Source of the DNA: Thermoplasmatota archaeon
GTDB lineage: Archaea; Thermoplasmatota; Thermoplasmata; UBA10834
Assembly (NCBI GenBank): GCA_018814355.1
Contig: JAHIZT010000037.1
Location: 5,989-69,988 of the forward strand
Direction of reading: 5' to 3'
DNA length: 64,000 nucleotides
Shown: positions 7,594-29,717 of the stretch, one piece after another
Numbering within the stretch: the stretch's first letter is position 1
How the letters are laid out: each line of letters opens with the position of its first letter
The notes under the pieces: generated by a model
Told to the model about the DNA's origin: nothing
Databases searched by the model: none
What the model saw: the letters and a program-made list of their open reading frames with translations, nothing else
Translations under genes and position numbers: made by a program

Positions 7594-9228
7594 CTATTCC
7601 TCTTCAGGCATGAGGTCGAGCAACTTGGCGAGAGCTACAGTGTAATCCTCTAGTTTCACGTCAATCATGGATGGGTCAACGGGCACTTTGTCCTGTATCG
7701 CACACATCATGTGTATCAGACACTTAGGGCAGAACATGAGAAGTCTCTGCGCCCCAACTCTCTTCGCTTCGACCACACGGTCCACCTGGATTCTTTTCGC
7801 GTTCGCGTTGCAGTTGGACCACGCACTCACACCGCAGCATACGGCTTTGTCTCTCGTGTTCTCCATCTCGACGAACTTCGCTCCAGAGAAAGCCTTGGCG
7901 AGTTCCCTCGGCGAGTCATAGACACCAGAATGCCTTCCGAGCCTGCATGAGTCGTGATAGCTGAATGTGAACGAGGGCTTCCTGACCGCATCCAGCTTCA
8001 GGGCTCCTGAATCCGCGAGCTGCTTGACGTAGTCCGCCATATGAACAAGTTCGAACTCCAGGTCGCCTGACAAGTCCTGGTAGTCGCTCTTGAAGGTCCT
8101 GTAGCATTCAGGACATGTGAAGACCACCTTCTTTGCTCCCGACTTTCGGATGAGCGCGATGTTTTGCTCCATGAGTCTCTCAAAGTTTGCCTCGTCACCG
8201 GTCCAGTTCAGGTCATGACCGCAACATTTCTCTTCGTTGCTCACCACAGGGACTACTCCAGCTTTGTTCATTATTCTGACTGCGCTCTCGCAGATCCTCT
8301 GCAGTCCGAGGTCCTTTCTATCATAGAAGATCGCGTCGTAGTGCGGCAGGCAACCTACGAAGTAGAACACATCGCCTTTCTCTGCTACCTTCAGATCCCT
8401 ACCAACCCAAGCGAGCCTATTCTGCTTCTGATCTCCCCTTGCCATCATCCTCTGGACGGAGTGGATCAGCCCTCCTTGGGAGCAGAGAGGCGCGGCGCCG
8501 AAACGTATCGCCTCCTCTCGCATTCCTCGGATGAATCCGGAATAGTCCACCTTGTACGGGCACATCGAGTTGCACTGTTCACATGTAGTGCATGTCCAGA
8601 TGTCCTTGTCCTTGGCTATGTTGTCGACTATCCCCTCCATGGCCCTCATGACTACGGTCCTGGGCGCAAAGTTGGTATCGAGCGTCGCAATTGGGCAGAC
8701 GGTCGTGCACTTCCCGCATTCGACACAATCGAAAGCGCCAGTGTCCTCGATCAGCTGCTTCACCATTGTTACGGTCTGCTCCTTGGTCCTGGTCTTCTTG
8801 ACCTTCGTCTCCTTCAGAAGGGGCGACGGTCCCAGAGCCCTCACTTCCTCGACGAACTCCTTGACGGCCTTGGCGAACCTCACCCTCTCAGAGGCGTTTA
8901 TCCACTCAGTCCTGAGCCTTCTAGAATCCAGTCCCATGATGTCGAAGAGTTTCTTCAGTGCGTCGATCCGTTCCTGCGCCCTCTTGTTCCCGGATACGTA
9001 GTGGCAGTTGTCCATCAGGCATCCTATCACCATGACCCCGTCAATGCCGTGTTCGAATGCGTCCATTATCGCTGCGGGCTCGACGCTTCCGCTGCACATG
9101 ACCCTGACAACGGTCACATTCGGAGGATATTCGATCTTGTTGACACCGGCCAAGCTGGCCGATGGATAACCGCACCAGGTGCAAGCGAACGCGATGATCC
9201 TAGGCTCGAACTTCTCACTCATTGACAT
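7594..9228 (-). CDS. hdrD: Fusion protein: MvhD/FlpD-like domain + HdrC-like 2x[4Fe-4S] ferredoxin + HdrB-like CCG domains (MvhD-HdrD fusion)
   Basis: The N-terminus (IIAFACTWCGYPSA...VRVMCSG...IGCLMDNCHYVSGN) matches MvhD/FlpD. It is followed by CVECGKCTTVCP and CTTCEQCNSMCP clusters and two CCG-type cysteine-rich domains (CCGHD... and CCGVSAW...). The start overlaps hdrA by 14 nt. Confidence 0.8.
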   Translation of the reverse strand: MSMSEKFEPRIIAFACTWCGYPSASLAGVNKIEYPPNVTVVRVMCSGSVEPAAIMDAFEHGIDGVMVIGCLMDNCHYVSGNKRAQERIDALKKLFDIMGLDSRRLRTEWINASERVRFAKAVKEFVEEVRALGPSPLLKETKVKKTRTKEQTVTMVKQLIEDTGAFDCVECGKCTTVCPIATLDTNFAPRTVVMRAMEGIVDNIAKDKDIWTCTTCEQCNSMCPYKVDYSGFIRGMREEAIRFGAAPLCSQGGLIHSVQRMMARGDQKQNRLAWVGRDLKVAEKGDVFYFVGCLPHYDAIFYDRKDLGLQRICESAVRIMNKAGVVPVVSNEEKCCGHDLNWTGDEANFERLMEQNIALIRKSGAKKVVFTCPECYRTFKSDYQDLSGDLEFELVHMADYVKQLADSGALKLDAVRKPSFTFSYHDSCRLGRHSGVYDSPRELAKAFSGAKFVEMENTRDKAVCCGVSAWSNCNANAKRIQVDRVVEAKRVGAQRLLMFCPKCLIHMMCAIQDKVPVDPSMIDVKLEDYTVALAKLLDLMPEEE

Positions 9229-10996
9229 CCGCCTCCTCCGCGATAGCGCGAATCATCGCCTCGACCTGCTCAGGTCTGAAGTTGTTGACAGTGATTGCCT
9301 TGTTGCAGCAAGCGACGGCGCATGCCCCGCAGCCCTCGCACCTGATCTCATCGATCTTTGAAACGAGGATGCCACGTTTTGCGTCTTCGGTGACCTGGAT
9401 GGCCTCGTACTCACAGGCCTTCTCGCACCTTCCACAGCCTCTGCATCTCTCCTCATCCACGAATGCAACGATTCTCGGGAACTTCGTCTTGCCCCTCTTC
9501 ATGAGATCGATTGCGTTCGCGGCAGCCGCCTTCGCGTCTTCGATCGAATACCTAATCCCCTTCGGACCCTGCGCTGTCCCAGCGACATAGATCCCCCTTC
9601 TGAACTCCGACGGGAACATCGGGTTTATGTCCTTCAAGAATCTGTCGATGTCCGTCTGGATGTGCAGCATCTTGGCGAGCTTGTCGCTGCCATCCGCAGG
9701 TTCCTGGCCGACGGACAGCACCACGAGGTCGGAATCGATATTCAGAAGGGTGTCTGAATCGGTGTCAGCAGCCCTGACGAACAGCTTGTTCATGTCCTCA
9801 ACCACCTCAGACACTCGTCCTCTGACGAAGTTGATGCCCTCCTCCTTGGCAGCCTGATAGAACTCCTCGAAGCCTCTGTACGGTCCTCTGAGATCGATAT
9901 AGTGGATGTACACATTCGCATCCGGGTTCAGCTTCTTGATCTCCCTTGCTTGGCCTATGGCATATGTGCAGCAGACAAGTGAGCAGTGGAGATTGCCCTT
10001 GGTCTTGTCTCTGGATCCCACACACTGGATGAAGTTGACGGTCTTGGGGACTTTACCGTCGGATGGCCTTACCAGTCCCTCACCTTTCTCGCGCTGTGCC
10101 ACGAGGATCTGCTCCAGTTCCACTGTCGTGATGACGTTCGGGTTCCCGTAGCGCAGCTCGGGTATGCGTTTCGGGTCGAAGATATTTGAACCAGTCGCGA
10201 CGATTACCGTCCCGACATCGATCTCCTTCAGTCCTGACGGAGTCTTGATCTTCACATGCCTGTTTCCGAATCCTCCGCTCATCTCTTCGATTTCAGAGTT
10301 GAGCATGACCTCTATGTTCCGGGTCTGGAGCACATCCTCGATCTTCGGCGTGAACACACATTCCTTGCAGTACTGGATGCAGCAGATCCCGCAGTTGTGT
10401 GTCGGGAAGGTCATGCTCAGCTTGTAGGTCCTGCCTCCAAGCTCTCCGGTCCTCTCAACCAGATGGACCTTGTACCCTGCGCTGGCGATGTCAAGCGCAG
10501 CCTGCATGCCGGTCACCCCACCGCCGATGACAATGGCGGAGTCCCTGATAGGTATCTCGATGTCCTCGAGAGGAACAAGCTTCTCTACCCTTGCAACGGC
10601 TCCCTTGACAAGGCTCTTTGCCTTGTTGGTGGCAGCCTTTTTGTCGTGATGCACCCAGGCACAGAGCTCGCGTATGTTGACCTGTTCGAACAGGTACTTG
10701 TTCATGCCCATGTCCTCAAGGGACCTGCTCACTATGACTCCCAGAATGTTGGGGGAACATGCACCAACTGCCGCACGCTCGAAGTTCACTTTCTTGAACT
10801 GGTCCTGGAGGAACTTCTGCCCCTCCCGCGAGCAGAGAGCCTCGTGAACGCTGACTGAGACCACTCGAGGGTCCTTCCCAATCCCATCCGCGATCGCCTG
10901 GAGGTCCACGTGCCTTCCAATCTCGTTCCTGCACGAGCACAGGAAGACGGCGATCCCCTTTCGTTCCACAACCTTTTCCTCTGAGCGTTCAGCCAT
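9215..10996 (-). CDS. hdrA: Heterodisulfide reductase subunit A-like flavoprotein (HdrA)
   Basis: FAD-binding GxGxxG (VIGGGVTGMQAALDIASAGYKVHLVER), an N-terminal Cys-rich domain, and a C-terminal 2x[4Fe-4S] ferredoxin (CRGCGRCEKACE...CEGCGACAVAC). Confidence 0.85.
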   Translation of the reverse strand: MAERSEEKVVERKGIAVFLCSCRNEIGRHVDLQAIADGIGKDPRVVSVSVHEALCSREGQKFLQDQFKKVNFERAAVGACSPNILGVIVSRSLEDMGMNKYLFEQVNIRELCAWVHHDKKAATNKAKSLVKGAVARVEKLVPLEDIEIPIRDSAIVIGGGVTGMQAALDIASAGYKVHLVERTGELGGRTYKLSMTFPTHNCGICCIQYCKECVFTPKIEDVLQTRNIEVMLNSEIEEMSGGFGNRHVKIKTPSGLKEIDVGTVIVATGSNIFDPKRIPELRYGNPNVITTVELEQILVAQREKGEGLVRPSDGKVPKTVNFIQCVGSRDKTKGNLHCSLVCCTYAIGQAREIKKLNPDANVYIHYIDLRGPYRGFEEFYQAAKEEGINFVRGRVSEVVEDMNKLFVRAADTDSDTLLNIDSDLVVLSVGQEPADGSDKLAKMLHIQTDIDRFLKDINPMFPSEFRRGIYVAGTAQGPKGIRYSIEDAKAAAANAIDLMKRGKTKFPRIVAFVDEERCRGCGRCEKACEYEAIQVTEDAKRGILVSKIDEIRCEGCGACAVACCNKAITVNNFRPEQVEAMIRAIAEEADVNE

Positions 10997-16776: not shown

Positions 16777-17375
16777 TGACGGTGGGAAGAGACATCATCG
16801 ACCTGTTCTCCGACCTGGGCGATGCCGGAATGCTACTTGCCATGATAGTGATCATCTGGATCGATGGCACCGCGTTCCCCACATTGCCCGAGGTCTGGAT
16901 GGTGTTCATCTTCGGCGCGCACCCCGATTCCTTCATGTGGGGGTTCAGTCTCGTCCTGGTCGCGACCGTTGCCAGCCTCGCCGGCAACTTCACGCTGTAC
17001 TCGCTCGTGAAGGTGGCGAGACTTCCCGGTTGGATCCAGAAGGGCATGAGGAAGTACACGGACTTCCTGATACTGAAGGACGAGAGGCTGTTGATTCTAA
17101 ACAGATTCGCCCCGCTCGTCCCTTACACGGGAGCGTTCATAGCGGTGTGCAACTGGAACGTGAAGAAGTCCGCCATCTATCTCTTCGTGAGCGCATTGGC
17201 GAAGTTCTCGGCCTACACTATCATCTTCTGGCTGAGCTACGGCAACCTCAAGGACGAGGTCGCCCCCTGGGTATCCCTCGGGATAGTGGTGACCGTGATC
17301 ACGGCCAGCCTAATAGCATCGGTCATCTACAAGAGGCGAGGCAAGACAAGGGGTGAGCCAGCACGATCTCCGTAG
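16776..17375 (+). CDS. DedA/VTT (SNARE-associated) family membrane protein
   Basis: 199 aa, 4-5 TM, with a DedA-like core (LNRFAPLVPYTGAFIAVCNW). Its stop overlaps the GTG start of the next gene by 1 nt. Confidence 0.6.
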   Translation: MTVGRDIIDLFSDLGDAGMLLAMIVIIWIDGTAFPTLPEVWMVFIFGAHPDSFMWGFSLVLVATVASLAGNFTLYSLVKVARLPGWIQKGMRKYTDFLILKDERLLILNRFAPLVPYTGAFIAVCNWNVKKSAIYLFVSALAKFSAYTIIFWLSYGNLKDEVAPWVSLGIVVTVITASLIASVIYKRRGKTRGEPARSP

Positions 17376-18478
17376 TGGTCCCGACCTACAATGAGAAGGA
17401 CAATCTCGATGACCTCGTCCGGAGGATCACCGATGCCTGCTCAGGCGCTGGCATCGACCCCGAGATCGTCATCGTTGATGACAACAGCCCAGATGGGACT
17501 GGGAACCGCGCTGAGGAATTGGCTAAGACCCACAGAATGAAGGTCATCCACAGGACTGGGAAGATGGGCCTTTCCTCCGCAGTCATAGAAGGGTTCAGGG
17601 TCTCGTCTGGTTCCATCTTCGTCGTAATGGACGCTGACCTGAGCCATCCGCCGGAGAAGATACCGGATATGGTCAAGATGATACAGTCTGGAGAGGCGGA
17701 GGTCGTGGTGGGCAGCCGGTACGTCGAAGGTGGCAGTGTCGAGAACTGGCCATTCTATCGGAAGGCCATCTCCAAAGGCGCCACGTTTATTGCCAGAGGA
17801 CTCACCAAGGTAAAGGACCCGATGTCCGGCTTCTTCGCTTTGAAAAAGGAGGTCCTAGGCGGCGTGGAGCTAAACCCTGTGGGCTACAAGATCGGTCTCG
17901 AGATACTGGTCAAGGGCAAGTACTCCAAGGTCGTCGAGGTGCCGATACGCTTCGCGGACAGGAAAGCGGGGAGTAGCAAGCTCGGAGGCCAGGAGATGCT
18001 GAGGTACGTCGACCATGTCTCGATGCTCTACGAGCATCGCAGGTTCTGGCTCGGGAAGTATCTCAAGTTCGCCTTCATCGGCGGCATAGGCGCCATCATA
18101 AACCTGGCGGTATTCTGGACGGCCCATGAGATATTCTTCTTAGTCCCGTTCTGGGCCATCGCGATAGCATTCGTCGTCGCGGACACCAACAACTACATCT
18201 GGAACAGGCTCTGGACCTTCAAATCGAAGAGTCAGATCAAGTTCCAGTATCCTCAGTTCCTCATCGTGAGCTTCATCGGCCTTGCCCTCAACGAGCTGCT
18301 CTTCGATGTGATCGTATACGACCTCTTCCCGGAACTGAACATCACCACGGACAAGGCCAGCGCACTTCTGGTGGTCGTGCAGGCGCTCTGCATCTTCGTT
18401 GTCAGCATATTCAATTTCCTGGCGAATTCGGCGTGGACCTTCAGGCACGACATAAGGCGCAGCAAGAAGCTACAGTAG
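17375..18478 (+). CDS. Dolichyl-phosphate mannose synthase-like GT2 with C-terminal GtrA-like membrane domain
   Basis: VPTYNEKDNL...IVIVDDNSPDGT...VVMDADLSHPPE (the Dpm1 DAD motif) plus a C-terminal 4-TM GtrA-like region. The start is GTG, the first in-frame start after an upstream stop. Confidence 0.8.
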   Translation: MVPTYNEKDNLDDLVRRITDACSGAGIDPEIVIVDDNSPDGTGNRAEELAKTHRMKVIHRTGKMGLSSAVIEGFRVSSGSIFVVMDADLSHPPEKIPDMVKMIQSGEAEVVVGSRYVEGGSVENWPFYRKAISKGATFIARGLTKVKDPMSGFFALKKEVLGGVELNPVGYKIGLEILVKGKYSKVVEVPIRFADRKAGSSKLGGQEMLRYVDHVSMLYEHRRFWLGKYLKFAFIGGIGAIINLAVFWTAHEIFFLVPFWAIAIAFVVADTNNYIWNRLWTFKSKSQIKFQYPQFLIVSFIGLALNELLFDVIVYDLFPELNITTDKASALLVVVQALCIFVVSIFNFLANSAWTFRHDIRRSKKLQ

Positions 18479-18480
18479 CT

Positions 18481-20022
18481 TCAGATGCTCCAGCCCTCGG
18501 TCGGGAGATTGAAGGCTTCGATAATGTCGTCCCTCACGAAGACCATCGGCGCATCCACATTCTCGAAGGCCCCGAATGCGGATTCAGACCACACACCCAT
18601 GAAGTCAGATGAGACCTTGCTGTACCCGAGGCCCTCCAGGAAGATGGCAACGTGAAACAAATCGTTCTCGACGAACCGGTAACTGAACAAGAAGACTGCC
18701 GGACGGTATTCAAAGACGGCAGCGTAGATATCATCGCCGGTCAGCTCGGGGTACACACGGGTGCCCACGTTGACCATGCTCGGAGGTGTGAGTCTCTTGG
18801 CGTAAGAGGTGATGAGCGGGTCTCCACTGATGATCCAATCGTTGGGTGTGGTCCACGCTGCTATCTTCTCTCCGTAGGCCAGTTGACCCGGCTTCTCTTG
18901 TGCTGCGAGTCCGTACGATGCCAACCCCGCGGACACGAGGATCCCAACCAGCAGAACGGCCATAACGGCCTTGGATTCATATGTCCTCTTTTTCCTATCA
19001 ATCATCTCAATCTTCTCTATGAACAGCCCCTTTTTAGTTTCATATCCATGCGCTATGAACATTCCGGAGAGTATGGCCAACCCGGGGCTCATCAACACCA
19101 TGTGATGAAGGAATACCAGAGGCTGCAGGACGAAGTCTGCGAGTAGCACCACGGTCAGGATGAGCAGGAACCTCGCCTCCTTCGAATGCGACCATACTCT
19201 GCGGGCGTACACGAGGGGGAGCGCGTACGCGAGGTTCAATCCGAAGAAGACGGGTATCGAGAGCTTCATTGCGAGGTCGAATTCCCGGTGCCCCTGGTCG
19301 AACAGCATACCGTTCAACATGTCAGAGGGGCCTAGGGCCAGAATCAAGACGGCCAGTGGCACCGCCGCTGCCCCTAGTAGAATGACAAGGTCGATGATCG
19401 TCCTTGTGGCTTTCTTGTTCTCCTTGTCGCCCTGCCAGAACTGAAGTAGCATGAACAGGAGCATCCCCAGGAGGGCGACTCCACCGAACAGCTTCGAGGC
19501 TGTCGACAGTCCCACGAGCAGCCCGGCCAAGATGAGCGCGGCCCTGGAACCTTTCCTCAGATAATGCAGGAACAGCGGCAGCGAGATCGCGAGGAAGGAG
19601 GTTGAGATGCCATCGAGCGAGAAGAGCCTCGACTCACGGAGCAGGGCGAAATCGATCGCTAGCAGAACGCCAGTCACCAGCATCGCAACATTGCCATGCT
19701 GCTTCTTTGATGCGAGCATGCAGGCAGCGATGGCCACAAGACTCAGGGCGGCGGTCAGGGCCCGCAGGACAACGACATCGCCGTCGAACACGGAGCCGAT
19801 CAGGAACACCAGGGGTGCCTGGTCGCACGGAAGCTCTGTGTAGAGCCCGTACCCTTGGCTGACCATCCTGGCCCTCTCCAGCATTATGCCTTCGTCGACA
19901 CCGTTGTTCGAGAAGCTCCAGTTGATGTTGTAGAACCTAAGGAATGCTGCAGCCGCCAGAATCAGCACCACCGCAATGAGAACCTTCCTCTTGTCGGTGG
20001 TCAGGTTCTCCAGCAGCTTCAT
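18481..20022 (-). CDS. GT-C glycosyltransferase of the GT39/GT83 (PMT/ArnT-like, Dol-P-sugar dependent) family
   Basis: 513 aa polytopic membrane protein with an early luminal-loop DE motif (NNGVDEGIM) and a PMT_2-like topology. It converges on the Dol-P-Man synthase gene. Confidence 0.7.
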   Translation of the reverse strand: MKLLENLTTDKRKVLIAVVLILAAAAFLRFYNINWSFSNNGVDEGIMLERARMVSQGYGLYTELPCDQAPLVFLIGSVFDGDVVVLRALTAALSLVAIAACMLASKKQHGNVAMLVTGVLLAIDFALLRESRLFSLDGISTSFLAISLPLFLHYLRKGSRAALILAGLLVGLSTASKLFGGVALLGMLLFMLLQFWQGDKENKKATRTIIDLVILLGAAAVPLAVLILALGPSDMLNGMLFDQGHREFDLAMKLSIPVFFGLNLAYALPLVYARRVWSHSKEARFLLILTVVLLADFVLQPLVFLHHMVLMSPGLAILSGMFIAHGYETKKGLFIEKIEMIDRKKRTYESKAVMAVLLVGILVSAGLASYGLAAQEKPGQLAYGEKIAAWTTPNDWIISGDPLITSYAKRLTPPSMVNVGTRVYPELTGDDIYAAVFEYRPAVFLFSYRFVENDLFHVAIFLEGLGYSKVSSDFMGVWSESAFGAFENVDAPMVFVRDDIIEAFNLPTEGWSI

Positions 20023-20078: not shown

Positions 20079-21263
20079 TCATAGGAATTCCTGGAACTCC
20101 TTGACCAATTCGGGGTGCTTCGTCTGGATGGCCTTGAGTATTGCGAATGTGGACATCTTCTCCACACCCACCTGGTTGAGGGTCATGATGATCTTGTTGA
20201 ATGCATCGTCCGTCAGCGTCACGAGCTTCTCCTTGGCCATCCAGTTCCTGTACAGGTTGTTCTCCAGGAGGTCTCTCCAGCCCTTCTCATAGCGCTGGAG
20301 CGACTGGGCGCTGAAGTTCTTCTCCGTGGTGGCCTTGGCCAAAACCTCTCCCGCGACCTTGCCAGCCTTGCAGCTGTTAGAGATTCCTCCACCGGTGATG
20401 GGGTCTATCTGCCTGGCAGCGTCCCCTACCAGTAGCACGCCGTCCCCGACGGTCTTGTCGATGGGGGCACATATGGACACTGCCCCGCTCACTAGTTCAA
20501 GAGGTTTGCCCTTCTTCAGCCTGGGGTCCGCCAGTACGAACCTGTCCAGGTGTTTCTTGACGTCCGCCGGGTCCTTGAGCTTCGTCAGTTGCATGCCTAT
20601 GCCGACATTCGCCGTGTCCTCGTTCTTTGGGAATATCCAGATGTACCCGCCTGGGGCTTTGCTGCCGAGAACGAACTCGCAGTAGTCAGGATCGTAGTTG
20701 ATGTTGGTGAGCCTGTACTGGAAACAGGTCGTGATGTCCCTCGGCGCGAGGTTGGTGTTTATGCCTGCCCATCTTCCGACCTGGGACTCGTATCCGTCAG
20801 CACCGACCACGCATCCGCATTTGATGTCCTTCGTCTCACCGAAGGATTTGATCTTGACGCCGGTGACCTTGTTGCCGGACTTGAGAAGCTTGATGGCAGA
20901 GGTCTTCAGCACCAAATCGGCGCCGGCCTTCGCGGCGTCGTGGGCCAAGAGCTTGTCGAAGAAGACGCGGTCGAGCACGATCCCAACCTCGTTCCCGGCC
21001 ATCTTCTCGGAAAGGTAGAACGACGTTCCGTTCGGGGCCACGATATTCGCGCCCTTGACTTCCCTGGCCACGCTCTTGGAATCCAGTTTGACCCCTACCG
21101 AGTCAAGCCAGGGGCGGGATATGCCCTCTCCGCATCTCACAGGAGAACCGATCTCCTGTCTCTTCTCTATCATGAGAACGCGGGCGCCGCCCTTGGCCGC
21201 CCACTTGGCGGTCATCGAGCCGGCTGGTCCCGCCCCGACCACAACGACATCGTAGTCTGGCAT
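20079..21263 (-). CDS. Geranylgeranyl reductase (digeranylgeranylglycerophospholipid reductase)
   Basis: The N-terminal FAD motif is YDVVVVGAGPAGSMTAKWAA and the GGR family is collinear throughout (394 aa). Confidence 0.9.
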   Translation of the reverse strand: MPDYDVVVVGAGPAGSMTAKWAAKGGARVLMIEKRQEIGSPVRCGEGISRPWLDSVGVKLDSKSVAREVKGANIVAPNGTSFYLSEKMAGNEVGIVLDRVFFDKLLAHDAAKAGADLVLKTSAIKLLKSGNKVTGVKIKSFGETKDIKCGCVVGADGYESQVGRWAGINTNLAPRDITTCFQYRLTNINYDPDYCEFVLGSKAPGGYIWIFPKNEDTANVGIGMQLTKLKDPADVKKHLDRFVLADPRLKKGKPLELVSGAVSICAPIDKTVGDGVLLVGDAARQIDPITGGGISNSCKAGKVAGEVLAKATTEKNFSAQSLQRYEKGWRDLLENNLYRNWMAKEKLVTLTDDAFNKIIMTLNQVGVEKMSTFAILKAIQTKHPELVKEFQEFL

Positions 21264-21458
21264 CTACTTCTCCCCCGCGATCTTGATGGCGCCCACAGGG
21301 CAGACCTTGATGCAGCGCATGCACATCGTGCAGTCGTCGTTGAACTCCAGCACGACCTCGTTCAGGTATATGGCATTCACGGGGCACGAGCCCACGCACG
21401 CACCGCAGTGCATGCATCTGGGTATGTCCACATCGAACTCGTCCAATTCCTTGTCCAT
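21264..21458 (-). CDS. Small 2x[4Fe-4S] ferredoxin (GGR-associated)
   Basis: CMHCGACVGSCP and CTMCMRCIKVCP. The start was trimmed to MDKELDEF because the longer ORF would overlap the upstream gene. The gene immediately precedes GGR on the same strand. Confidence 0.7.
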   Translation of the reverse strand: MDKELDEFDVDIPRCMHCGACVGSCPVNAIYLNEVVLEFNDDCTMCMRCIKVCPVGAIKIAGEK

Positions 21459-21468
21459 GATTATCAAC

Positions 21469-23022
21469 TCATGTGTACTCTTCGCCGTGCTTCTTTCTCC
21501 ACTCGGCCAGCGGCACCGAGAACTTCTTCTCGACCTCGGTCCTGTAGACCGGGCCGGAGTTGTATGCGCAGAACGGGATGATCTTCCCATCCGGCGTTGT
21601 GTAGTGTATCATGCACCTTTTGACCCGCTCGATATCGTAGTTGTACGAGTCCATGAAGTGCATCGCGCCGACGTACATCATCTTCCAGCTGAACCTGGCT
21701 AGCTCGCTCTTGGTATCCTCGGAGATGATCCCTTTCAGGGACCTCAGGAAGTCCATCTTGCTCATGCCCTCGGGGAGCTCGTTCTCCCTGACGTACTTCT
21801 TCAGCAGGTTGTACGCCTTCACCTTGGACAGCAGCTTGACCTTCTTCCCCTCGGTCTTCTTGGCAAGCTCGTAGACCTCGGTGAACAGGTTCTCGACATC
21901 CACGAACCTCGTCACGGGTACCACGTGGTCCGCATCCTTGACGAACATGTAGGTGGCCATGCCGCAGTGGACGTGCGTGGTCAGCGTGACCTTCGGGTCA
22001 CAGTACAGAGCCGCCCATAGCTCCGAGACGGAGGCAACGGTCGGGACGGGGTACCAGTCGGTCGTCTTGATCATCCCTTTCGACTGCTTCTCTATGTCCT
22101 TCGCGAGGTCGGGGATCGTGTACCTACCCTTCTCCAACTCCTCGTTGCTGATCCTGCCGGTGAACGCCACGGGTTGGAAGTTCACACCCCTGACGACGTC
22201 CATGTTCTCAAGGGCGTAGTGCAGTATCGGCCAGACCTGGTCGTCGTTCAACCCCTTCACGATGGTCGGGACGAAGACGATCGACGGATGCCTCTTGACC
22301 TTCCTGCAGTTCTCGATGACCTTCTTCTTCGTGTCGAGCAGGTCCGCGCCCCTGGCGCGCTTGTAGATCTCCGGTCTGAGGCCGTCGAACTGCAAGTAGA
22401 CCGTGTTCAGGCCAGCATCGCTCGCCTTCTGGAAGAAATCCACATCCTTGGCGAACAGGATGCCGTTCGTGGCCACCTGGACTTGTGCGAACCCCAGGTC
22501 ATGGGCCGCCTTGATGATGTCGATGAACCTCGGATGGATGGTCGGCTCGCCCCCGGAGAACTGCACGGCAGGCGTTGGGACAGGCCTCTGGGCCCTGAGG
22601 ACCTTCAGCATGCCGACGACCGTGTCGTAGTCCGGTTCGAACACATATCCTGCCTGGTTCGCGTTCGCAAAGCAGATCGGGCACTTCAGGTTGCATCTGT
22701 TGGTGAGGTCGACATTCGCGAGTCCAGTGTGAGAGAGATGGAGGTTGCACAGGCCGCAGTCGAAGGGGCATTGCCTCGCATTCGGTATCAGGGGCTCGCG
22801 GACACCTACACCATCCTTGGCCCACTTCTCGGCCCTCAGATACATGTCCACATCGGACCATACTATGTCCCTGAAGTTGCCGTGTTTGGGGCAGTTCTTC
22901 TCCATAACCACCTTGCCCTTGTCCTCTCGTATGGTGGCGGGTATGATCATCAAACATTCCGGACACAGGCTCTCCGTCTTCTTCGGAAGCCCCAGCGGAA
23001 TAGCGGATTCCCTGGTCAGCAT
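21469..23022 (-). CDS. tes: Radical SAM enzyme, probable tetraether lipid synthase (Tes/GDGT-MAS) homolog
   Basis: 517 aa with the radical SAM CxxxCxxC (CNLKCPICF), a second Cx3Cx2C (CPFDCGLC), an N-terminal rubredoxin-like CPEC...CPKHG, and C-terminal cysteines. It sits in an operon with a ferredoxin and GGR. Confidence 0.55.
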   Translation of the reverse strand: MLTRESAIPLGLPKKTESLCPECLMIIPATIREDKGKVVMEKNCPKHGNFRDIVWSDVDMYLRAEKWAKDGVGVREPLIPNARQCPFDCGLCNLHLSHTGLANVDLTNRCNLKCPICFANANQAGYVFEPDYDTVVGMLKVLRAQRPVPTPAVQFSGGEPTIHPRFIDIIKAAHDLGFAQVQVATNGILFAKDVDFFQKASDAGLNTVYLQFDGLRPEIYKRARGADLLDTKKKVIENCRKVKRHPSIVFVPTIVKGLNDDQVWPILHYALENMDVVRGVNFQPVAFTGRISNEELEKGRYTIPDLAKDIEKQSKGMIKTTDWYPVPTVASVSELWAALYCDPKVTLTTHVHCGMATYMFVKDADHVVPVTRFVDVENLFTEVYELAKKTEGKKVKLLSKVKAYNLLKKYVRENELPEGMSKMDFLRSLKGIISEDTKSELARFSWKMMYVGAMHFMDSYNYDIERVKRCMIHYTTPDGKIIPFCAYNSGPVYRTEVEKKFSVPLAEWRKKHGEEYT

Positions 23023-23090
23023 TCTATCGCGTCCTTGGTATACGAATCCGTGCGAATCATTTAAACCTTGTGTAGCTCATACAGCTACAT

Positions 23091-25121: not shown

Positions 25122-25277
25122 GAGTGCATCCCGAAGGGTCTAATGCCAATGCGGTCTAAGAACATTTCTACGTGCTCTGCTCGGCGCCGGCGGTTCTTTG
25201 AAGAATCTCGTTCGGCCAGATGTACGCTGCATGTAGCTGATACCATTTACCCTCTGGAGGCCGGTCGCGAAGCTGGT

Positions 25278-28200
25278 ATGGCTATGAGTATCAGGACCGT
25301 CGGGCTGGGAAGCAGTCTTTCGAAGCTCAGAAGCATGAATAGGGACAGGGCGGGACAGGTCTCATTCGCTGTCATCGCGGTCGTTCTGCTGACCGCCTCT
25401 GCGATAACCGGAACATACATGGCAAAGAGCCAGCTGGATCGGGCCCAGGATGAGAGGCGACAGAAGCTTCTGGACGCCATGGAGGACGCCGCTGGGGATG
25501 TCATCCAGGAGCTGAGCTTGTGCGGTGCATCAAAGGCCCACGAGACAGTCTCCTCATGGACCAGGTTTCCGGTGAACGAGTCCGATATCTCGGACGCTTA
25601 CTCGGACAAGGTGTCGATGTACATAGGCACGAGCTATCCGCGATCCGAGGGGAAGTTCGCGGTCGAGGTCTCCAACTGGACGGGGGGACTATTCTTCATC
25701 GAGCGAAAGACGCTGGACCTCGTCCCTCAGGAGGCCAACGGCACAGAGGAATTGGAAATCGACGGTATCAAGATGGACTACGAGAAGCTTCCATCGCCGT
25801 CCGCAGAAGTGATGGGCGAGACGACCGCGAACCCGTACTACGTGGCTCTTGGCAACTTCTCAATCAGGGTGTCGGTCAAGAACGTCGCGCTCGTCAAGCA
25901 ATCGTCGTTCCAGAGACCGATTGTGTCCGCCCTCCCATTTCTGGAGTCCAAGCTTAGGGCGTTCGAGGGGGCATCCGATGGCGAGCTTTCCGACCTGGGT
26001 CGACTGCTCGGGTACATGCTGAGCACTCTCTGCGAACTGAGGGTGCTCGAGGGCTATGGCCAGCCGATGTACTCTGGCAGGGAGACCTCTCAAGTGCTCA
26101 CGGAGGACGATGTGTACCGCGCGGTCGCCGTCGGGCTGCTCCTCGAGCAAGCTAGGGTCTTCAGGACTGTGGACCATGGATTCGCGGCCCAGGTCGCGGA
26201 TGCCTGCGGAGGCGGGTATCCCGGCATCGACGCCTTCCTAAGTCCCAAGGAGCGAACGCTCGACGCAGCCGAACTCTTCCTGTGGTTCTTGGGAATCACC
26301 AAGCCTCAGATCGATTCTCGGATGATCATCGCCCAAGCGGTCTTCGGCTTGTCCGATGCGCTCGCGCTAAGGATCATGGACTACATGGGCTGGCTAGGTC
26401 AGCTGGACTTGGCTAAGGGCCTGTTGGACTCCATGCACAGCACGATCGATTCGTTCGTCTCGTTCCTAACGGGCGTCGACAAATCCTGGATCGCCGTCGT
26501 GTCATGGATAGGCAAGACGCTGAAGATGACTGGGGCCGACCCAAGGGCGTACTCGGAGTTGTTCTCCTCGCCCGAGGACTTCTCAGTACTCGTGCCGGAG
26601 AGGCAGTACTTCGTGGAGGACGCCTCTGGGAACCTGTATCCTGTCTGGGTCGGGAACATGTCGTGCCCTGTGAACGTCCCGCAGTACGACCTCCTTTCTT
26701 CAGCCAAATGGAAGGACTTCTATGCTTCCTACAAGGAATGCCAGGCGAGTTTCAGAACGCAGCTGGCGGACGGCATCACAAGACTGGCGTTCGACATCGC
26801 CGACCTCGCTCAGCTCGACATGAATGAGACCGTCGTCGACCCCACTGACGGCCGGGACATTTTCGAGTCGCTGGTTCACGGTTCGGGGGAGGTCGACCTT
26901 AGATTGGAGCGGACATCACTTGCCCAAAGAGGGAAGAATCTTCCTATGTTCTCGTCGAACTATCAGCTGGCCACGAGGTTCGGCCAGTTCGTGAATGCGA
27001 ACGGCCTTTCGCTCGTGAACCGGACAGGCCTGCTCCAGGCGACCTATTCCGACCTGGCAACCTCCGTGGCCGCCTCCGCAAGGTACGCCTACATACCCGA
27101 CCTTGTCGTTCCAGTCGAGCAGCAGATCGAGGACATTGTGAGGCACGACGTCGAGCTGGACGCGGGCTGGGGCGTGGGCGCGGCGACCGCCTCATTTCTG
27201 GATGGCATCTCTGCAAGGGACCTCGAACGGCTTGTGGCCCTTGTCAACATGTCCATCGTGAAGGCTGATGACGGCTTCATGGGTCCGTTGGTGGATTCGG
27301 TCGCAAACATGATAGCCTGGGGCACGGACACGCTCCCCGGCCTGGAGCAGCTGGTGGAGATGCAGCTCTCTGCATTTGCGCGGCAGGTTCTGGAACAGAA
27401 GGAGTTCTCCGCCCACAAACGGCATGTCCAGGTAGGGTTGGGCGGAACCTTCGAGTTCTGGGAGGGCGACAAGACCTCCGCCGCAGGAAATGCCCGGGTC
27501 ATGAACGAGTCGTTGAACGTGTCCGTCCAGTCCGGGCTGCCGCCCATGCAAACGGTGCCTTTCGACGCATCCGCAGGATACGATTCTCTGGAAAACCTGT
27601 TCCCAACGGACAACATGCTGGTCCAGGTCAAGGGACCTTGGGACTTCGATTCAAGCATCGCCTCATATCCCAACCTCCATTTGACATCGGCCGACAATGA
27701 GACTCTGAAACCGTACTCGACCCAGTGGACTGTCTCCGTCCTAGGAGTCCTGAGCCTGGCGCTTTCGACGCACAACTCCGCTATGCAGTCGATCCTATCC
27801 GATGGAGGAACGGAATCGAGGAGGAGCATACGGATAGAAGTATGCGTCCCAGTTGTTGTGCATTCCGCATGGCCTCTCCAGGGTGTGGTCTACAATCCCA
27901 CCAACACCGCGCTCGCTGACGGGCTGGCTGCAGCGAGGGTGTGCTACGATATCCTCTGGGACAAGCTCGGGCCGGTGCTTGGGTGGGTCAAGGACGGCAT
28001 GGAGATGATCTACAAGTTCGTCTCCGATGCGTTCGATGTCCTTGCGCGTTTCGCAAATCGCATGATAAAGTACATCACAGAGGCCATGCAGACATTGATC
28101 GAGAACCTCCAGGAGTACATACAGAAAGTGGCGGACTCCGCGCTCGGAAAAGCCATCAGATGGTTCATCGACATCACTGGACGGGTCGAGTTCAGGTTCT

Positions 28201-29717
28201 CCATGTACGGCTTCCTGATAATCGTTCAAACGAACCTTCCGGACCTGATCTACCGGAACGGGAACGACATGCTGAGGATAATCGTCTGCACTGATAGGTT
28301 CGGTCCAGGCATCGCTTTCGGCGTGCGAATCGCGAGGCTCACGGACGGCAGCTATGACATACTCGCGAACGCCACACTGGTGCTGAAGAACGGTGTGGTC
28401 AACGTGCTCATCGACCCGCTCATGCACATAATGAGGCGCCTGGTGGAGGTGCATTGCACCGCCAAGACATGGGGCATGGACATCGTCATGCCGGAGGTCG
28501 AGCCGTACGATCTCGCAAGCGTGAGCACGTCCCAGATCCCTGGTGTAGGGACTTTCCTCTCCAACATACCTATTCCAATCCTTGGGCTCTCGGCATCCAT
28601 CGAAGCTGGTATGGAACTCAAGTACTCGCCGCCATTCCCGACCGATGTCGTCGTCAACGAGTTCGAGTCGAACCCGCACGGGGACGATTCAGGAAAGGAA
28701 TGGGTGGAGCTCTACAACCCTCTAGGGGTGCCCAAATGCGTCGACGGCTGGATGGTCTCCACGGTCCACGGCAGGAACAGCGCCATGAGGATATCGGGCA
28801 CGATAGCTCCAAACGGGCTCCTGACCTTCGCGTTCCCCGAGACATCGGTGGACAACGGCGAACCTGGGGATCCGTTCAACAACGGTGACTCGATAGTCCT
28901 CACGGACCCAGCCGGGGTGCCCGTCGATTCAACGCCAATGCTGAGAGACGGGGGCAATGACGAGAAGACGAACCAGCGCAGTTGGGACGGCGGCCCCAAG
29001 TGGGTTTTCAGGCAAGGGAGCAAGGGCGGCTCCAACGGAGTGCCCGTCCTTCTGGCCAGCGAGGACTTCATCGTCAAGGCGTTGTTCGAGGCGTTCAAGG
29101 AGGCCTTTATACAGACACAGCTGCAGGAGGTCTCCGCCTCCCTGGACTTCGTCTTGCTGTTCGCGAAGCGCGTGCTGAACAACTTCATAGAGAACCTGCT
29201 CTCCCTGGTCAAGGAGATCATCCACGCGGTGATCTTCTATGTCAAAGTAGTACTGAGCGACGCCTCGGGGACGGCAGGGGTCGGGATGAGGCAGTCCTTT
29301 GTCGTCACGGGCGAGGCCATCGTCGATCTGCTCCGATGGCTCGTACATACGCTCGCCACCTTCATAGTGAACCTTGGCAGGCCGAGCAACCCGATCGTCT
29401 ATCCGACCTTCCCGAAGAGCATCTTCTCTGAGCTGTACCTCTCCTTCGAGGTGCTGTTCACGGTGGGCATGCCAAAGATGGTCCGCGTCCTGGGCGCGGT
29501 TGGGGACTTGGGCCACGACTTCACGATGGCGGTGTCGATCTCCCCCAACATCCCAGCGCTGGGCAAGGTGATGGGAAGGAACTGGGGCAACTGGAGCGTC
29601 GAGTTCGGAGCTTACCTAGAAGGAGTGCCCGCAGGGTTCGCAATGGGGTTCCTCGTTGTCGAGGCTGGGAAGTACATCGATTTTTGGCTTTTCAAGGGGA
29701 GAGTGTATGGTCTCTGA
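25278..29717 (+). CDS. Giant predicted surface (glyco)protein with N-terminal signal anchor/TM, many N-x-S/T sequons and a lamin-tail domain (LTD); the ORF could extend to 25143
   Basis: A single uninterrupted ORF of about 1480-1524 aa. It has an N-terminal hydrophobic helix (VSFAVIAVVLLTASAITGTYMA) and an LTD signature (VVVNEFESNPHGDDSGKEWVELYNP...VDGWMVS...). The C-terminal end is hydrophobic. GGAGG lies 17 nt upstream of the ATG at 25278. Confidence 0.7.
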   Translation: MAMSIRTVGLGSSLSKLRSMNRDRAGQVSFAVIAVVLLTASAITGTYMAKSQLDRAQDERRQKLLDAMEDAAGDVIQELSLCGASKAHETVSSWTRFPVNESDISDAYSDKVSMYIGTSYPRSEGKFAVEVSNWTGGLFFIERKTLDLVPQEANGTEELEIDGIKMDYEKLPSPSAEVMGETTANPYYVALGNFSIRVSVKNVALVKQSSFQRPIVSALPFLESKLRAFEGASDGELSDLGRLLGYMLSTLCELRVLEGYGQPMYSGRETSQVLTEDDVYRAVAVGLLLEQARVFRTVDHGFAAQVADACGGGYPGIDAFLSPKERTLDAAELFLWFLGITKPQIDSRMIIAQAVFGLSDALALRIMDYMGWLGQLDLAKGLLDSMHSTIDSFVSFLTGVDKSWIAVVSWIGKTLKMTGADPRAYSELFSSPEDFSVLVPERQYFVEDASGNLYPVWVGNMSCPVNVPQYDLLSSAKWKDFYASYKECQASFRTQLADGITRLAFDIADLAQLDMNETVVDPTDGRDIFESLVHGSGEVDLRLERTSLAQRGKNLPMFSSNYQLATRFGQFVNANGLSLVNRTGLLQATYSDLATSVAASARYAYIPDLVVPVEQQIEDIVRHDVELDAGWGVGAATASFLDGISARDLERLVALVNMSIVKADDGFMGPLVDSVANMIAWGTDTLPGLEQLVEMQLSAFARQVLEQKEFSAHKRHVQVGLGGTFEFWEGDKTSAAGNARVMNESLNVSVQSGLPPMQTVPFDASAGYDSLENLFPTDNMLVQVKGPWDFDSSIASYPNLHLTSADNETLKPYSTQWTVSVLGVLSLALSTHNSAMQSILSDGGTESRRSIRIEVCVPVVVHSAWPLQGVVYNPTNTALADGLAAARVCYDILWDKLGPVLGWVKDGMEMIYKFVSDAFDVLARFANRMIKYITEAMQTLIENLQEYIQKVADSALGKAIRWFIDITGRVEFRFSMYGFLIIVQTNLPDLIYRNGNDMLRIIVCTDRFGPGIAFGVRIARLTDGSYDILANATLVLKNGVVNVLIDPLMHIMRRLVEVHCTAKTWGMDIVMPEVEPYDLASVSTSQIPGVGTFLSNIPIPILGLSASIEAGMELKYSPPFPTDVVVNEFESNPHGDDSGKEWVELYNPLGVPKCVDGWMVSTVHGRNSAMRISGTIAPNGLLTFAFPETSVDNGEPGDPFNNGDSIVLTDPAGVPVDSTPMLRDGGNDEKTNQRSWDGGPKWVFRQGSKGGSNGVPVLLASEDFIVKALFEAFKEAFIQTQLQEVSASLDFVLLFAKRVLNNFIENLLSLVKEIIHAVIFYVKVVLSDASGTAGVGMRQSFVVTGEAIVDLLRWLVHTLATFIVNLGRPSNPIVYPTFPKSIFSELYLSFEVLFTVGMPKMVRVLGAVGDLGHDFTMAVSISPNIPALGKVMGRNWGNWSVEFGAYLEGVPAGFAMGFLVVEAGKYIDFWLFKGRVYGL

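Follow-up and report, generated by a model that had tools for sequence, protein, structure and literature searches.

Predicted Tetraether Lipid Synthesis Operon of an Uncultured Thermoplasmatota Lineage, with a Divergent TrmB-Like Gene and a Conserved Palindrome at Its Promoter

This locus raises the question of whether a radical SAM protein, a ferredoxin (Fd) and a geranylgeranyl reductase (GGR) encoded side by side in a Thermoplasmatota archaeon constitute a unit for the synthesis of membrane-spanning tetraether lipids, and what might control such a unit. The coordination and regulation of GDGT formation are not yet understood (Zeng et al., 2022, PMC8941075). The window, that is, the whole 64-kb stretch of DNA that was analyzed, was examined for gene identity, gene order and promoter elements.

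Gene Layout at the Locus

The tes, fd and ggr genes were all encoded on the minus strand (Table 1), in agreement with the common direction given by the sequence-only reading. That reading had put the spacers between them at 5–10 nt; the measured gap was 10 nt from the TGA of tes to the ATG of fd and 0 nt from the TAG of fd to the ATG of ggr, the latter two genes abutting. The start of fd was placed at the ATG at position 21458, and the public NCBI gene call for the same contig concurs. A 108-aa open reading frame overlapping the 3′ end of tes, taken from a mechanical ORF list, was replaced by this shorter call. Tight or abutting junctions imply co-transcription from one promoter, and we infer that tes-fd-ggr form a single transcript (operon).

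Table 1. Features of the tes locus, in window coordinates, with the basis of each call.
Feature	Position	Strand	Basis
PMT/ArnT-like membrane glycosyltransferase, 513 aa	18481..20022	-	Pfam PMT and PMT_2
ggr, digeranylgeranylglycerophospholipid (geranylgeranyl) reductase, 394 aa	20079..21263	-	Pfam GGR_cat and FAD_binding_3; TIGR02032; 3OZ2 match
fd, 2x[4Fe-4S] ferredoxin, 64 aa	21264..21458	-	Pfam Fer4 family matches; two CX2CX2CX3CP motifs
tes, tetraether lipid synthase Tes/GDGT-MAS (radical SAM), 517 aa	21469..23022	-	NCBIfam, Pfam, PDB match, ligand alignment
TATA-like box TTTAAAT	23059..23065	.	Sequence reading; putative function
Palindrome TGTAGC-N7-GCTACA, candidate operator	23071..23089	.	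Perfect inverted repeat
TrmB-family regulator (TrmBL2-like architecture), 248 aa	23091..23837	+	Pfam TrmB HTH; AF2 fold matches

Identity of the Radical SAM Protein

By sequence, the radical SAM protein was identified as an orthologue of the tetraether lipid synthase Tes/GDGT-MAS. It scored 654.3 bits against NCBIfam NF045702 (cutoff 450), covering profile positions 1–485 of 486, and carried the Pfam domains Zn_ribbon_HMPTM (E 1e-19) and Radical_SAM. The match to MJ0619 of Methanocaldococcus jannaschii (PDB 7TOL/7TOM; E 1.1e-156) ran from query residues 12–512 to residues 21–515 of 7TOL_A, with 49% identity over the full length and a four-domain layout common to both proteins. The family assignment proposed from sequence alone was thereby upheld by profile and structure matches, and no other radical SAM subfamily gave a better match: MoaA, PqqE, SPASM maturases and viperin scored at most 76 bits against cutoffs above 180, and TrsS, the sister family, scored 375 bits, below its cutoff of 490.

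The metal ligands reported for MJ0619 by Lloyd et al. (2022, PMC9433317) served for comparison, and the alignment kept every one of them, including all three cluster-ligand sets. The rubredoxin-like site, seen earlier as CPEC...CPKHG, was C20-X2-C23-X20-C44-X2-H47 (MJ C9/C12/C33/H36). The extra Cx3Cx2C of the sequence-only reading corresponded to the N-terminal auxiliary [4Fe-4S] cluster, with C85/C89/C92 (in CPFDCGLC) and H95 at the positions of MJ C73/C77/C80 and H83; H95 is thus the probable His ligand of this cluster. The radical SAM CX3CX2C, within CNLKCPICF (110–118), comprised C110/C114/C117 (MJ C98/C102/C105). At the C-terminal auxiliary cluster, M454 and Y474 took the places of the labile Met439 and of Tyr459 in MJ0619, and C353/C470/C485, shared with MJ0619 and invariant in 12 homologues, are predicted to be its three Cys ligands. 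MJ C456, which adjoins the candidate ligand C455 and is itself not conserved, was replaced by M471 in the window protein.

Ferredoxin and Geranylgeranyl Reductase

The fd product contained two canonical CX2CX2CX3CP motifs (C15/18/21/25 and C43/46/49/53) in its 64 aa, which agrees with its earlier description as a 2x[4Fe-4S] ferredoxin; its score against NCBIfam FdxA_fam was 57.5, slightly under the cutoff of 65.

The ggr product scored 231 bits against TIGR02032 (cutoff 158.8), matched Pfam GGR_cat (E 4.5e-28) together with FAD_binding_3, and aligned over its full length with the structure of the DGGGPL reductase Ta0516 of Thermoplasma acidophilum (3OZ2; E 3e-114). FAD and catalytic motifs were the same in both: GAGPAG at 10–15 (GxGxxG), C44, PGGYIWIFP at 204–212 (PxxYxWxFP), LxGD at 277–280 and VGDAA at 279–283. 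The Thermoplasmatales-specific equivalog NF041160 was missed (422 vs. a cutoff of 780 bits), as is to be expected for a different order; the shortfall is no argument against GGR function. In T. acidophilum a gene for a 4Fe-4S protein is also reported in the GGR locus, and the GGR is reported to use NADPH in vitro (PMC10821996).

Conservation of the Gene Order

Conservation was counted in a sample of 80 Thermoplasmata/Methanomassiliicoccales genomes. The gene fd lay immediately 3′ of tes in 75 of the 80, and the complete order Tes-Fd-GGR was found in 70 of the 73 related loci with at least 1.5 kb of downstream sequence. Among the metagenome matches listed, all 23 tes loci followed by 3.4 kb or more of sequence had the same order. 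Since the order recurs across related genomes and metagenome loci, the arrangement is not due to chance; it is the rule across Thermoplasmata/Methanomassiliicoccales. Beyond these lineages, none of eight loci from other archaea (M. jannaschii, Methanohalobium, Methanothermus, Methanofastidiosum, Methanotrichaceae, ANME-1, Hydrothermarchaeota, and Methanohalophilus) had Fd-GGR beside Tes; MJ0619, unlike the window tes, adjoins neither gene.

In Methanosarcina acetivorans, MA_1486 (Tes) adjoins the ferredoxin MA_1485, which is needed to activate the GGR MA_1484, and this adjacency was one of three arguments that nominated Tes (Zeng et al., 2022, PMC8941075). Compared from its literature description alone, that cluster has the same three functions in consecutive genes, with the ferredoxin between GGR and Tes, as in the window, and differs in its host, which belongs to the Halobacteriota rather than the Thermoplasmatota. 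Isobe et al. (2014) is a further reference for the MA_1484-MA_1485-MA_1486 cluster. Two other Methanosarcinales Tes loci (L082 and L088) were without the Fd-GGR linkage. The suggestion that this linkage is not the usual context of Tes was therefore correct only insofar as some archaea lack it; the linkage had been published for Methanosarcina (PMC8941075) and is nearly constant in Thermoplasmata/Methanomassiliicoccales. The three-gene module is an arrangement already known from Methanosarcina and holds no new biology in itself; the counts show that an entire class has conserved the published adjacency.

Predicted Role of the Operon and Alternative Readings

The tes-fd-ggr operon very probably supplies the enzymes for the final two steps in the synthesis of membrane-spanning tetraether lipids, with enzyme activities and Fd-to-GGR electron transfer assigned by analogy with characterized homologues. 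A single TATA promoter, located 36 nt ahead of the tes ATG, would drive all three genes. GGR, an FAD enzyme, would be supplied with electrons by the small 2x[4Fe-4S] ferredoxin and would saturate the geranylgeranyl chains of a diether phospholipid, yielding an archaeol-type lipid. Tes would next use radical SAM chemistry to link two saturated phytanyl chains through their terminal methyl carbons: a 5′-deoxyadenosyl radical would abstract hydrogen, a sulfur in the C-terminal auxiliary [4Fe-4S] cluster would hold the substrate radical, and a second SAM-derived radical would lead to closure of the C–C bond. The expected products are GTGT followed by GDGT, or macrocyclic archaeol. Such an order of steps has been obtained in E. 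coli carrying ma1484-1485 and mj0619, in which DGGGOH was converted to archaeol and then to GDGT (PMC12042123), and fully saturated lipids are the Tes substrates (PMC9433317). GDGT-type lipids are accordingly predicted for this uncultured Thermoplasmatota lineage.

A radical SAM enzyme depends on a donor that delivers single electrons at low potential, and the sequence-only reading had suggested a shared electron-supply unit, in which Fd would be the dedicated reductant of both GGR and the radical SAM cluster of Tes. The position of fd, sandwiched between tes and ggr, fits this suggestion, as do three loci in which Fd stays with tes while ggr does not: in L056 Fd lay directly behind tes with no GGR within 3 kb, and in L059 and L078 ggr was displaced by 600–800 nt. 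Against these stand the sufficiency of Tes alone for GDGT synthesis in M. maripaludis, where it works without this Fd (PMC8941075), the lack of an adjacent Fd at MJ0619 and seven other Tes loci, and the fact that GGR is the sole partner of the homologous Fd shown by experiment (PMC10821996, PMC8941075). As Fd was not needed for Tes in the heterologous methanogen, a dedicated Fd-to-Tes link is putative, and a shared role of Fd, though plausible, appears somewhat doubtful.

Two further readings concern the radical SAM protein itself. It could be a paralogue of Tes whose product is different or minor (macrocyclic archaeol only, or another lipid C–C coupling) instead of the main GDGT synthase, given that the product of a Tes is not predictable from sequence and that paralogues exist: MA_1114 of M. 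acetivorans makes macrocyclic archaeol only, in traces (PMC8941075), and one Methanomassiliicoccaceae MAG held two tes copies (L022 and L027). The gene context makes this very unlikely, as the window tes is orthologous to the operon-linked copy with Fd, GGR, TrmB and palindrome (as in L022), whereas the unlinked L027 is without all four. The NF045702 equivalog cutoff, moreover, was exceeded by 200 bits, and it is MA_1486, the Fd/GGR-linked copy, that makes GDGT in M. acetivorans (PMC8941075). It is scarcely credible that the protein is a 7,8-dihydro-6-hydroxymethylpterin dimethyltransferase (HMPTM) of methanopterin biosynthesis, an older annotation of MJ0619 that survives in the Pfam name of the N-terminal domain and on some homologues in JGI records; the conserved gene context is one of lipid saturation, not pterin synthesis, and Lloyd et al. 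(2022, PMC9433317) could not corroborate HMPTM activity and identified MJ0619 as GDGT-MAS by structure and assay.

A TrmB-Like Gene and a Conserved Palindrome Upstream of tes

With the three-gene module read as a tetraether synthesis operon, the only new lead at the locus is the pair formed by a divergent regulator gene and a palindrome at the tes promoter. The regulator matched the Pfam TrmB HTH PF01978 (68.7 bits, cutoff 25.6, E 4e-19), scored 21.3 against PF11495 (cutoff 22.2), the model used for the coiled coil plus effector-binding-domain N-subdomain, and was far under the equivalog cutoffs for TrmB, TrmBL1 and TrmBL2. Its AF2 model (pLDDT 85) had TrmBL2 5BPD (E 3e-15) and TrmB 3QPH (E 1e-10) as top fold matches, and the C-terminal domain of the model also matched PLD-fold proteins. 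A winged helix-turn-helix, a long coiled-coil helix and a PLD-like C-terminal domain were shared with these two Pyrococcus proteins, although identity in structural alignments was only 18–24%. At 248 aa, compared with 335–342 for TrmB, the protein was without the sugar-binding C-terminal subdomain of TrmB/TrmBL1, and the modelled architecture resembles that of TrmBL2: HTH, coiled coil, and PLD-like effector domain. TrmB acts on sugar metabolism genes, whereas the window regulator adjoins lipid synthesis genes. A TrmB-like gene lay beside tes in divergent orientation in 60 of the 80 genomes and, among the metagenome matches listed, in 57 of 114.

The divergent intergenic region between tes and the TrmB-like gene was 68 bp long and contained the palindrome between the start codon of the TrmB-like gene and the TATA box of tes. 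This box probably serves tes and may be bidirectional. No other exact copy of the palindrome occurred in the 64-kb window, where two copies with two mismatches occurred at chance level. A single exact copy was present in 40 of the 80 related loci, in every case a short distance upstream of tes; with up to two mismatches it was present in most of 79 related loci, and in about 64 of the 79 a TATA-like box began exactly 5 nt after it. No second copies were found in approximately 1 Mb of related loci.

Metagenome scanning gave a similar distribution: among the matches listed, 65 of 120 lay immediately upstream of tes. The 54 listed matches away from tes were on unrelated, AT-rich contigs with a mean GC content of 35%, vs. 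57% for tes loci, and look like chance occurrences. L177 was the only GC-rich non-tes contig among the matches listed, and nothing related was found on it. The palindrome resembles TrmB/TrmBL1 operators in being an inverted repeat of hexamers with a short spacer beside BRE/TATA elements, and differs from them in half-site sequence, the Thermococcales TGM operator being TATCAC-N5-GTGATA.

Putative Regulation of the Operon

The balance tips slightly toward a proposal in which the conserved palindrome is the binding site of the divergent TrmBL2-like protein, which would thereby control tes-fd-ggr and its own gene. The protein would bind TGTAGC-N7-GCTACA as a dimer. Placed between the presumably shared TATA box and the regulator's own, probably leaderless, start, the occupied palindrome would bring about autorepression; placed just upstream of the BRE/TATA of tes-fd-ggr, it would allow activation or repression of the operon. 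The PLD-like domain might respond to a lipid or to some other metabolic cue. The chances are about even that tetraether lipid synthesis has a dedicated local regulator in this protein. Conservation of regulator and palindrome extended across Thermoplasmata and took in Methanomassiliicoccus MAGs. The literature searched contained nothing relevant on a connection of TrmB with tetraether lipids or on the regulation and operon structure of tetraether synthase genes.

If true, archaeal GDGT synthesis would gain its first described cis/trans regulatory element, and the finding would bear on the control of the archaeol/GDGT balance, a matter of relevance to membrane adaptation and to GDGT-based palaeoclimate proxies. 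The conserved regulator gene and the phylogenetically footprinted candidate operator at the tes promoter offer a direct experimental target.

Downstream Flank of the Operon

Rfam and tRNA scans of the 64-kb window returned no RNA gene and no riboswitch. On the same strand as ggr and 56 nt downstream of it lay the gene for the PMT/ArnT-like membrane glycosyltransferase, and inspection of this spacer found neither a T-run terminator nor a clear TATA box. The gene followed ggr in 13 of the 80 loci, all among the closest relatives (L001–L014), and it is possibly a fourth, presumably co-transcribed, member of the operon in this subclade only.

Identity of the Radical SAM, Ferredoxin, and Reductase Genes

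The radical SAM protein encoded by tes scored 654 bits on the NCBIfam equivalog NF045702, "tetraether lipid synthase Tes" (cutoff 450 bits), and contained the Pfam domains Radical_SAM and N-terminal Zn_ribbon_HMPTM. Its sole strong match to a solved structure was the M. jannaschii GDGT-MAS, MJ0619 (7TOL/7TOM; E 1e-156; residues 12-512; 49% identity). Each metal ligand listed by Lloyd et al. (2022; PMC9433317) was mapped by alignment from MJ0619 onto the window protein: rubredoxin-like iron (C9-X2-C12-X20-C33-X2-H36; window C20/C23/C44/H47); [4Fe-4S]N (C73/C77/C80 and a conserved His; window C85/C89/C92/H95); radical SAM cluster (C98/C102/C105; window C110/C114/C117); and [4Fe-4S]C (labile Met439 and conserved Tyr459; window M454 and Y474). 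Residues C353, C470, and C485 were invariant among 12 homologues and are putative C-terminal cluster ligands. TrsS was the second-ranking family yet fell under its own NCBIfam cutoff, and the MoaA, PqqE, SPASM, and viperin models gave at most 76 bits each.

Every motif quoted in the sequence-only reading was found: CNLKCPICF (residues 110-118), the additional Cx3Cx2C (C85/C89/C92), CPEC...CPKHG (C20/C23 and C44..H47), and the two ferredoxin cluster motifs. Its placement of the protein in the Tes/GDGT-MAS family was likewise borne out. Because of the Tes family score, the full-length MJ0619 match, and the conserved cluster ligands, the best match lay within Tes and not in another radical SAM subfamily, with the auxiliary cysteines present. 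The protein is thus predicted with high confidence to be a Tes/GDGT-MAS orthologue. The nearest homologues were from uncultured Thermoplasmata (top match Euryarchaeota archaeon RBG_13_57_23, 92% identity), followed by Methanomassiliicoccales Tes at ~60-65% identity.

The fd product contained two CX2CX2CX3CP motifs and is a minimal clostridial-type 2x[4Fe-4S] protein. The FAD reductase matched Pfam GGR_cat, scored over the TIGR02032 cutoff, was homologous over its full length to T. acidophilum Ta0516 (3OZ2; E 3e-114), and contained the motifs GxGxxG, Cys44, PGGYIWIFP, and LxGD, which together point to a geranylgeranyl reductase (GGR). Its score under the Thermoplasmatales-specific NCBIfam equivalog cutoff fits a host from a different order.

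The ORF listing and junction reading confirmed the three genes on the minus strand at 20079..23022. The claimed spacers of 5-10 nt held for the first junction (10 nt from tes TGA to fd ATG) but not for the second, which was 0 nt since the ggr ATG directly follows the fd TAG. A 108-aa ferredoxin ORF in the mechanical list was an artefact running over the tes 3' end. The identical public contig (GCA_018824625.1/JAHJFY010000157.1) carried the same calls of 517, 64, and 394 aa.

Features of the tes locus and other genes in the window
Feature	Position	Strand	Remarks
tes, radical SAM protein, 517 aa	23022..21469	minus	
fd, ferredoxin, 64 aa	start ATG at 21458	minus	junction read from sequence
ggr, FAD reductase, 394 aa	21263..20079	minus	
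TATA-like box TTTAAAT	23059..23065		
Perfect palindrome TGTAGC-N7-GCTACA	23071..23089		found by aligning tes-trmB spacers
TrmB-family gene, 248 aa	23091..23837	plus	divergent from tes, 68-bp spacer
PMT/ArnT-like membrane glycosyltransferase	18481-20022	minus	56 nt downstream of ggr
GT2 protein with GtrA domain, resembles dolichol-phosphate sugar synthase	17375-18478	plus	convergent, beside PMT-like gene
Fusion protein, MvhD/FlpD domain and HdrB-like CCG domains	7594-9228	minus	
HdrA-like FAD/Fer4 protein	9215-10996	minus	adjoins fusion protein
1524-aa ORF	25143-29717	plus	single Pfam match, weak Lamin Tail Domain

Prevalence and Proposed Role of the tes-fd-ggr Linkage

The sequence-only reading held that this linkage was not the usual context, a claim overturned by the literature and by a survey of 80 Thermoplasmata/Methanomassiliicoccales genome loci. 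In M. acetivorans, Tes (MA_1486) adjoins the ferredoxin MA_1485, needed to activate the GGR MA_1484, and this adjacency, with two other arguments, led to the nomination of Tes (Zeng et al., 2022; PMC8941075). E. coli carrying ma1484-1485 and mj0619 converted DGGGOH to archaeol and then GDGT (PMC12042123), which makes these three genes a module of demonstrated function. Among the surveyed loci, fd was directly downstream of tes in 75/80 and GGR came next in 74/80; of the 73 loci whose downstream sequence extended 1.5 kb or more, 70 had both, the exceptions being L027, L069, and L056 (Fd only). Among the metagenome matches listed, all 23 tes loci followed by 3.4 kb of sequence or more had both. 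Fd-GGR adjoined Tes in none of eight loci sampled outside these groups: M. jannaschii, Methanohalobium, Methanothermus, Methanofastidiosum, Methanotrichaceae, ANME-1, Hydrothermarchaeota, and Methanohalophilus. The linkage, a published arrangement, is the norm in this class and the conserved state of the clade, but not universal. The module itself is of low interest.

One Methanomassiliicoccaceae MAG (CAYHAO01) contained two Tes copies, L022 with TrmB, palindrome, Fd, and GGR, and L027 with none of these and unrelated neighbours (AIRC, GNAT, Nre, and a small radical SAM protein), a pair paralleling MA_1486 and its paralogue MA_1114 in M. acetivorans. L069 (2040-6179) had tes with palindrome and TATA box, without fd-ggr; downstream lay a convergent 475-aa B12-binding radical SAM protein, a possible GDGT ring synthase or lipid methylase. 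In Methanothermus fervidus (L083, 3411-6452), the gene on one side of tes was divergent and CarS-like (CDP-archaeol synthase), and a GHMP kinase lay downstream; this lipid-pathway linkage is different from that with Fd and GGR in the window.

By analogy with characterized homologues, the ferredoxin would reduce GGR, which would saturate isoprenoid chains; a passage in Lloyd et al. (2022; PMC9433317) gives the Tes substrate as a fully saturated lipid. Tes would then join two terminal carbons by means of radicals derived from SAM and a C-S intermediate at the C-terminal cluster, and co-transcription would supply substrate-making and substrate-consuming enzymes together. A second role for this ferredoxin, as reductant of the Tes radical SAM cluster, is a tentative proposal, somewhat less likely than not. 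The position of fd between tes and ggr speaks for it, as does its retention beside tes in three loci where ggr is displaced (L056, L059, and L078); however, Tes works alone in M. maripaludis (PMC8941075), and outside Thermoplasmata/Methanomassiliicoccales most Tes loci are without an adjoining ferredoxin.

Divergent Regulator and Palindrome at the tes Promoter

A TrmB-family gene was divergent from and adjacent to tes in 60/80 genomes. The structural model of the window protein (pLDDT 85) matched TrmBL2 (E 3e-15) and TrmB (E 1e-10) and comprised a winged helix, long coiled coil, and PLD-like C-terminal domain; fold comparison with both indicated that it is without the sugar-binding subdomain. 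The palindrome was separated by 1 nt from the trmB start codon and by 5 nt from TTTAAAT, with one exact copy in the 64-kb window. It was exact and single in 40/80 loci, always at the tes promoter, and ~64 of 79 testable loci had a copy (≤2 mismatches) with a TATA-like box beginning exactly 5 nt beyond it. Some lineages had both half-sites altered symmetrically (TGTAGT...ACTACA), as expected of a dimer site. The palindrome was kept in L054, where an lpd-like gene instead of trmB is divergent from tes, and in L069 although fd and ggr are missing.

A metagenome scan with palindrome plus TATA box returned at least 120 matches. Among the matches listed, at least 65 were immediately upstream of tes (contigs averaging 57% GC), and at least 54 others, on unrelated contigs rich in AT (mean 35% GC), were read as chance matches; one further match had trmB with downstream sequence too short to judge. 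No second regulon member appeared among the matches listed. Since the site overlaps the region between TATA box and start of a probably leaderless trmB, its placement suggests autorepression; lying also just upstream of the tes BRE/TATA, it suggests regulation of tes, whether activation or repression. No paper among those searched tied a TrmB regulator to tetraether genes. The TrmBL2-like regulator with its conserved candidate operator is the one lead deserving experiment.

In a Methanotrichaceae MAG far from Thermoplasmata (L085, 3143-7164), a TrmB gene was also divergent from tes, with a UbiA prenyltransferase and a GT2 after tes. The Thermoplasmata palindrome was absent from its tes-trmB spacer, which nevertheless had the same layout with a TATA box.

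Other Genes in the Window

The PMT-like gene followed ggr in 13/80 loci and the GT2 gene occurred in 11/80, all within the closest relatives (L001-L014); glycolipid or protein glycosylation may be coupled to the lipid operon. The pair at 7594-10996 comprises heterodisulfide-reductase-like genes in a Thermoplasmatota MAG. The 1524-aa ORF, 1479 aa in the public gene call, may encode a large surface protein.
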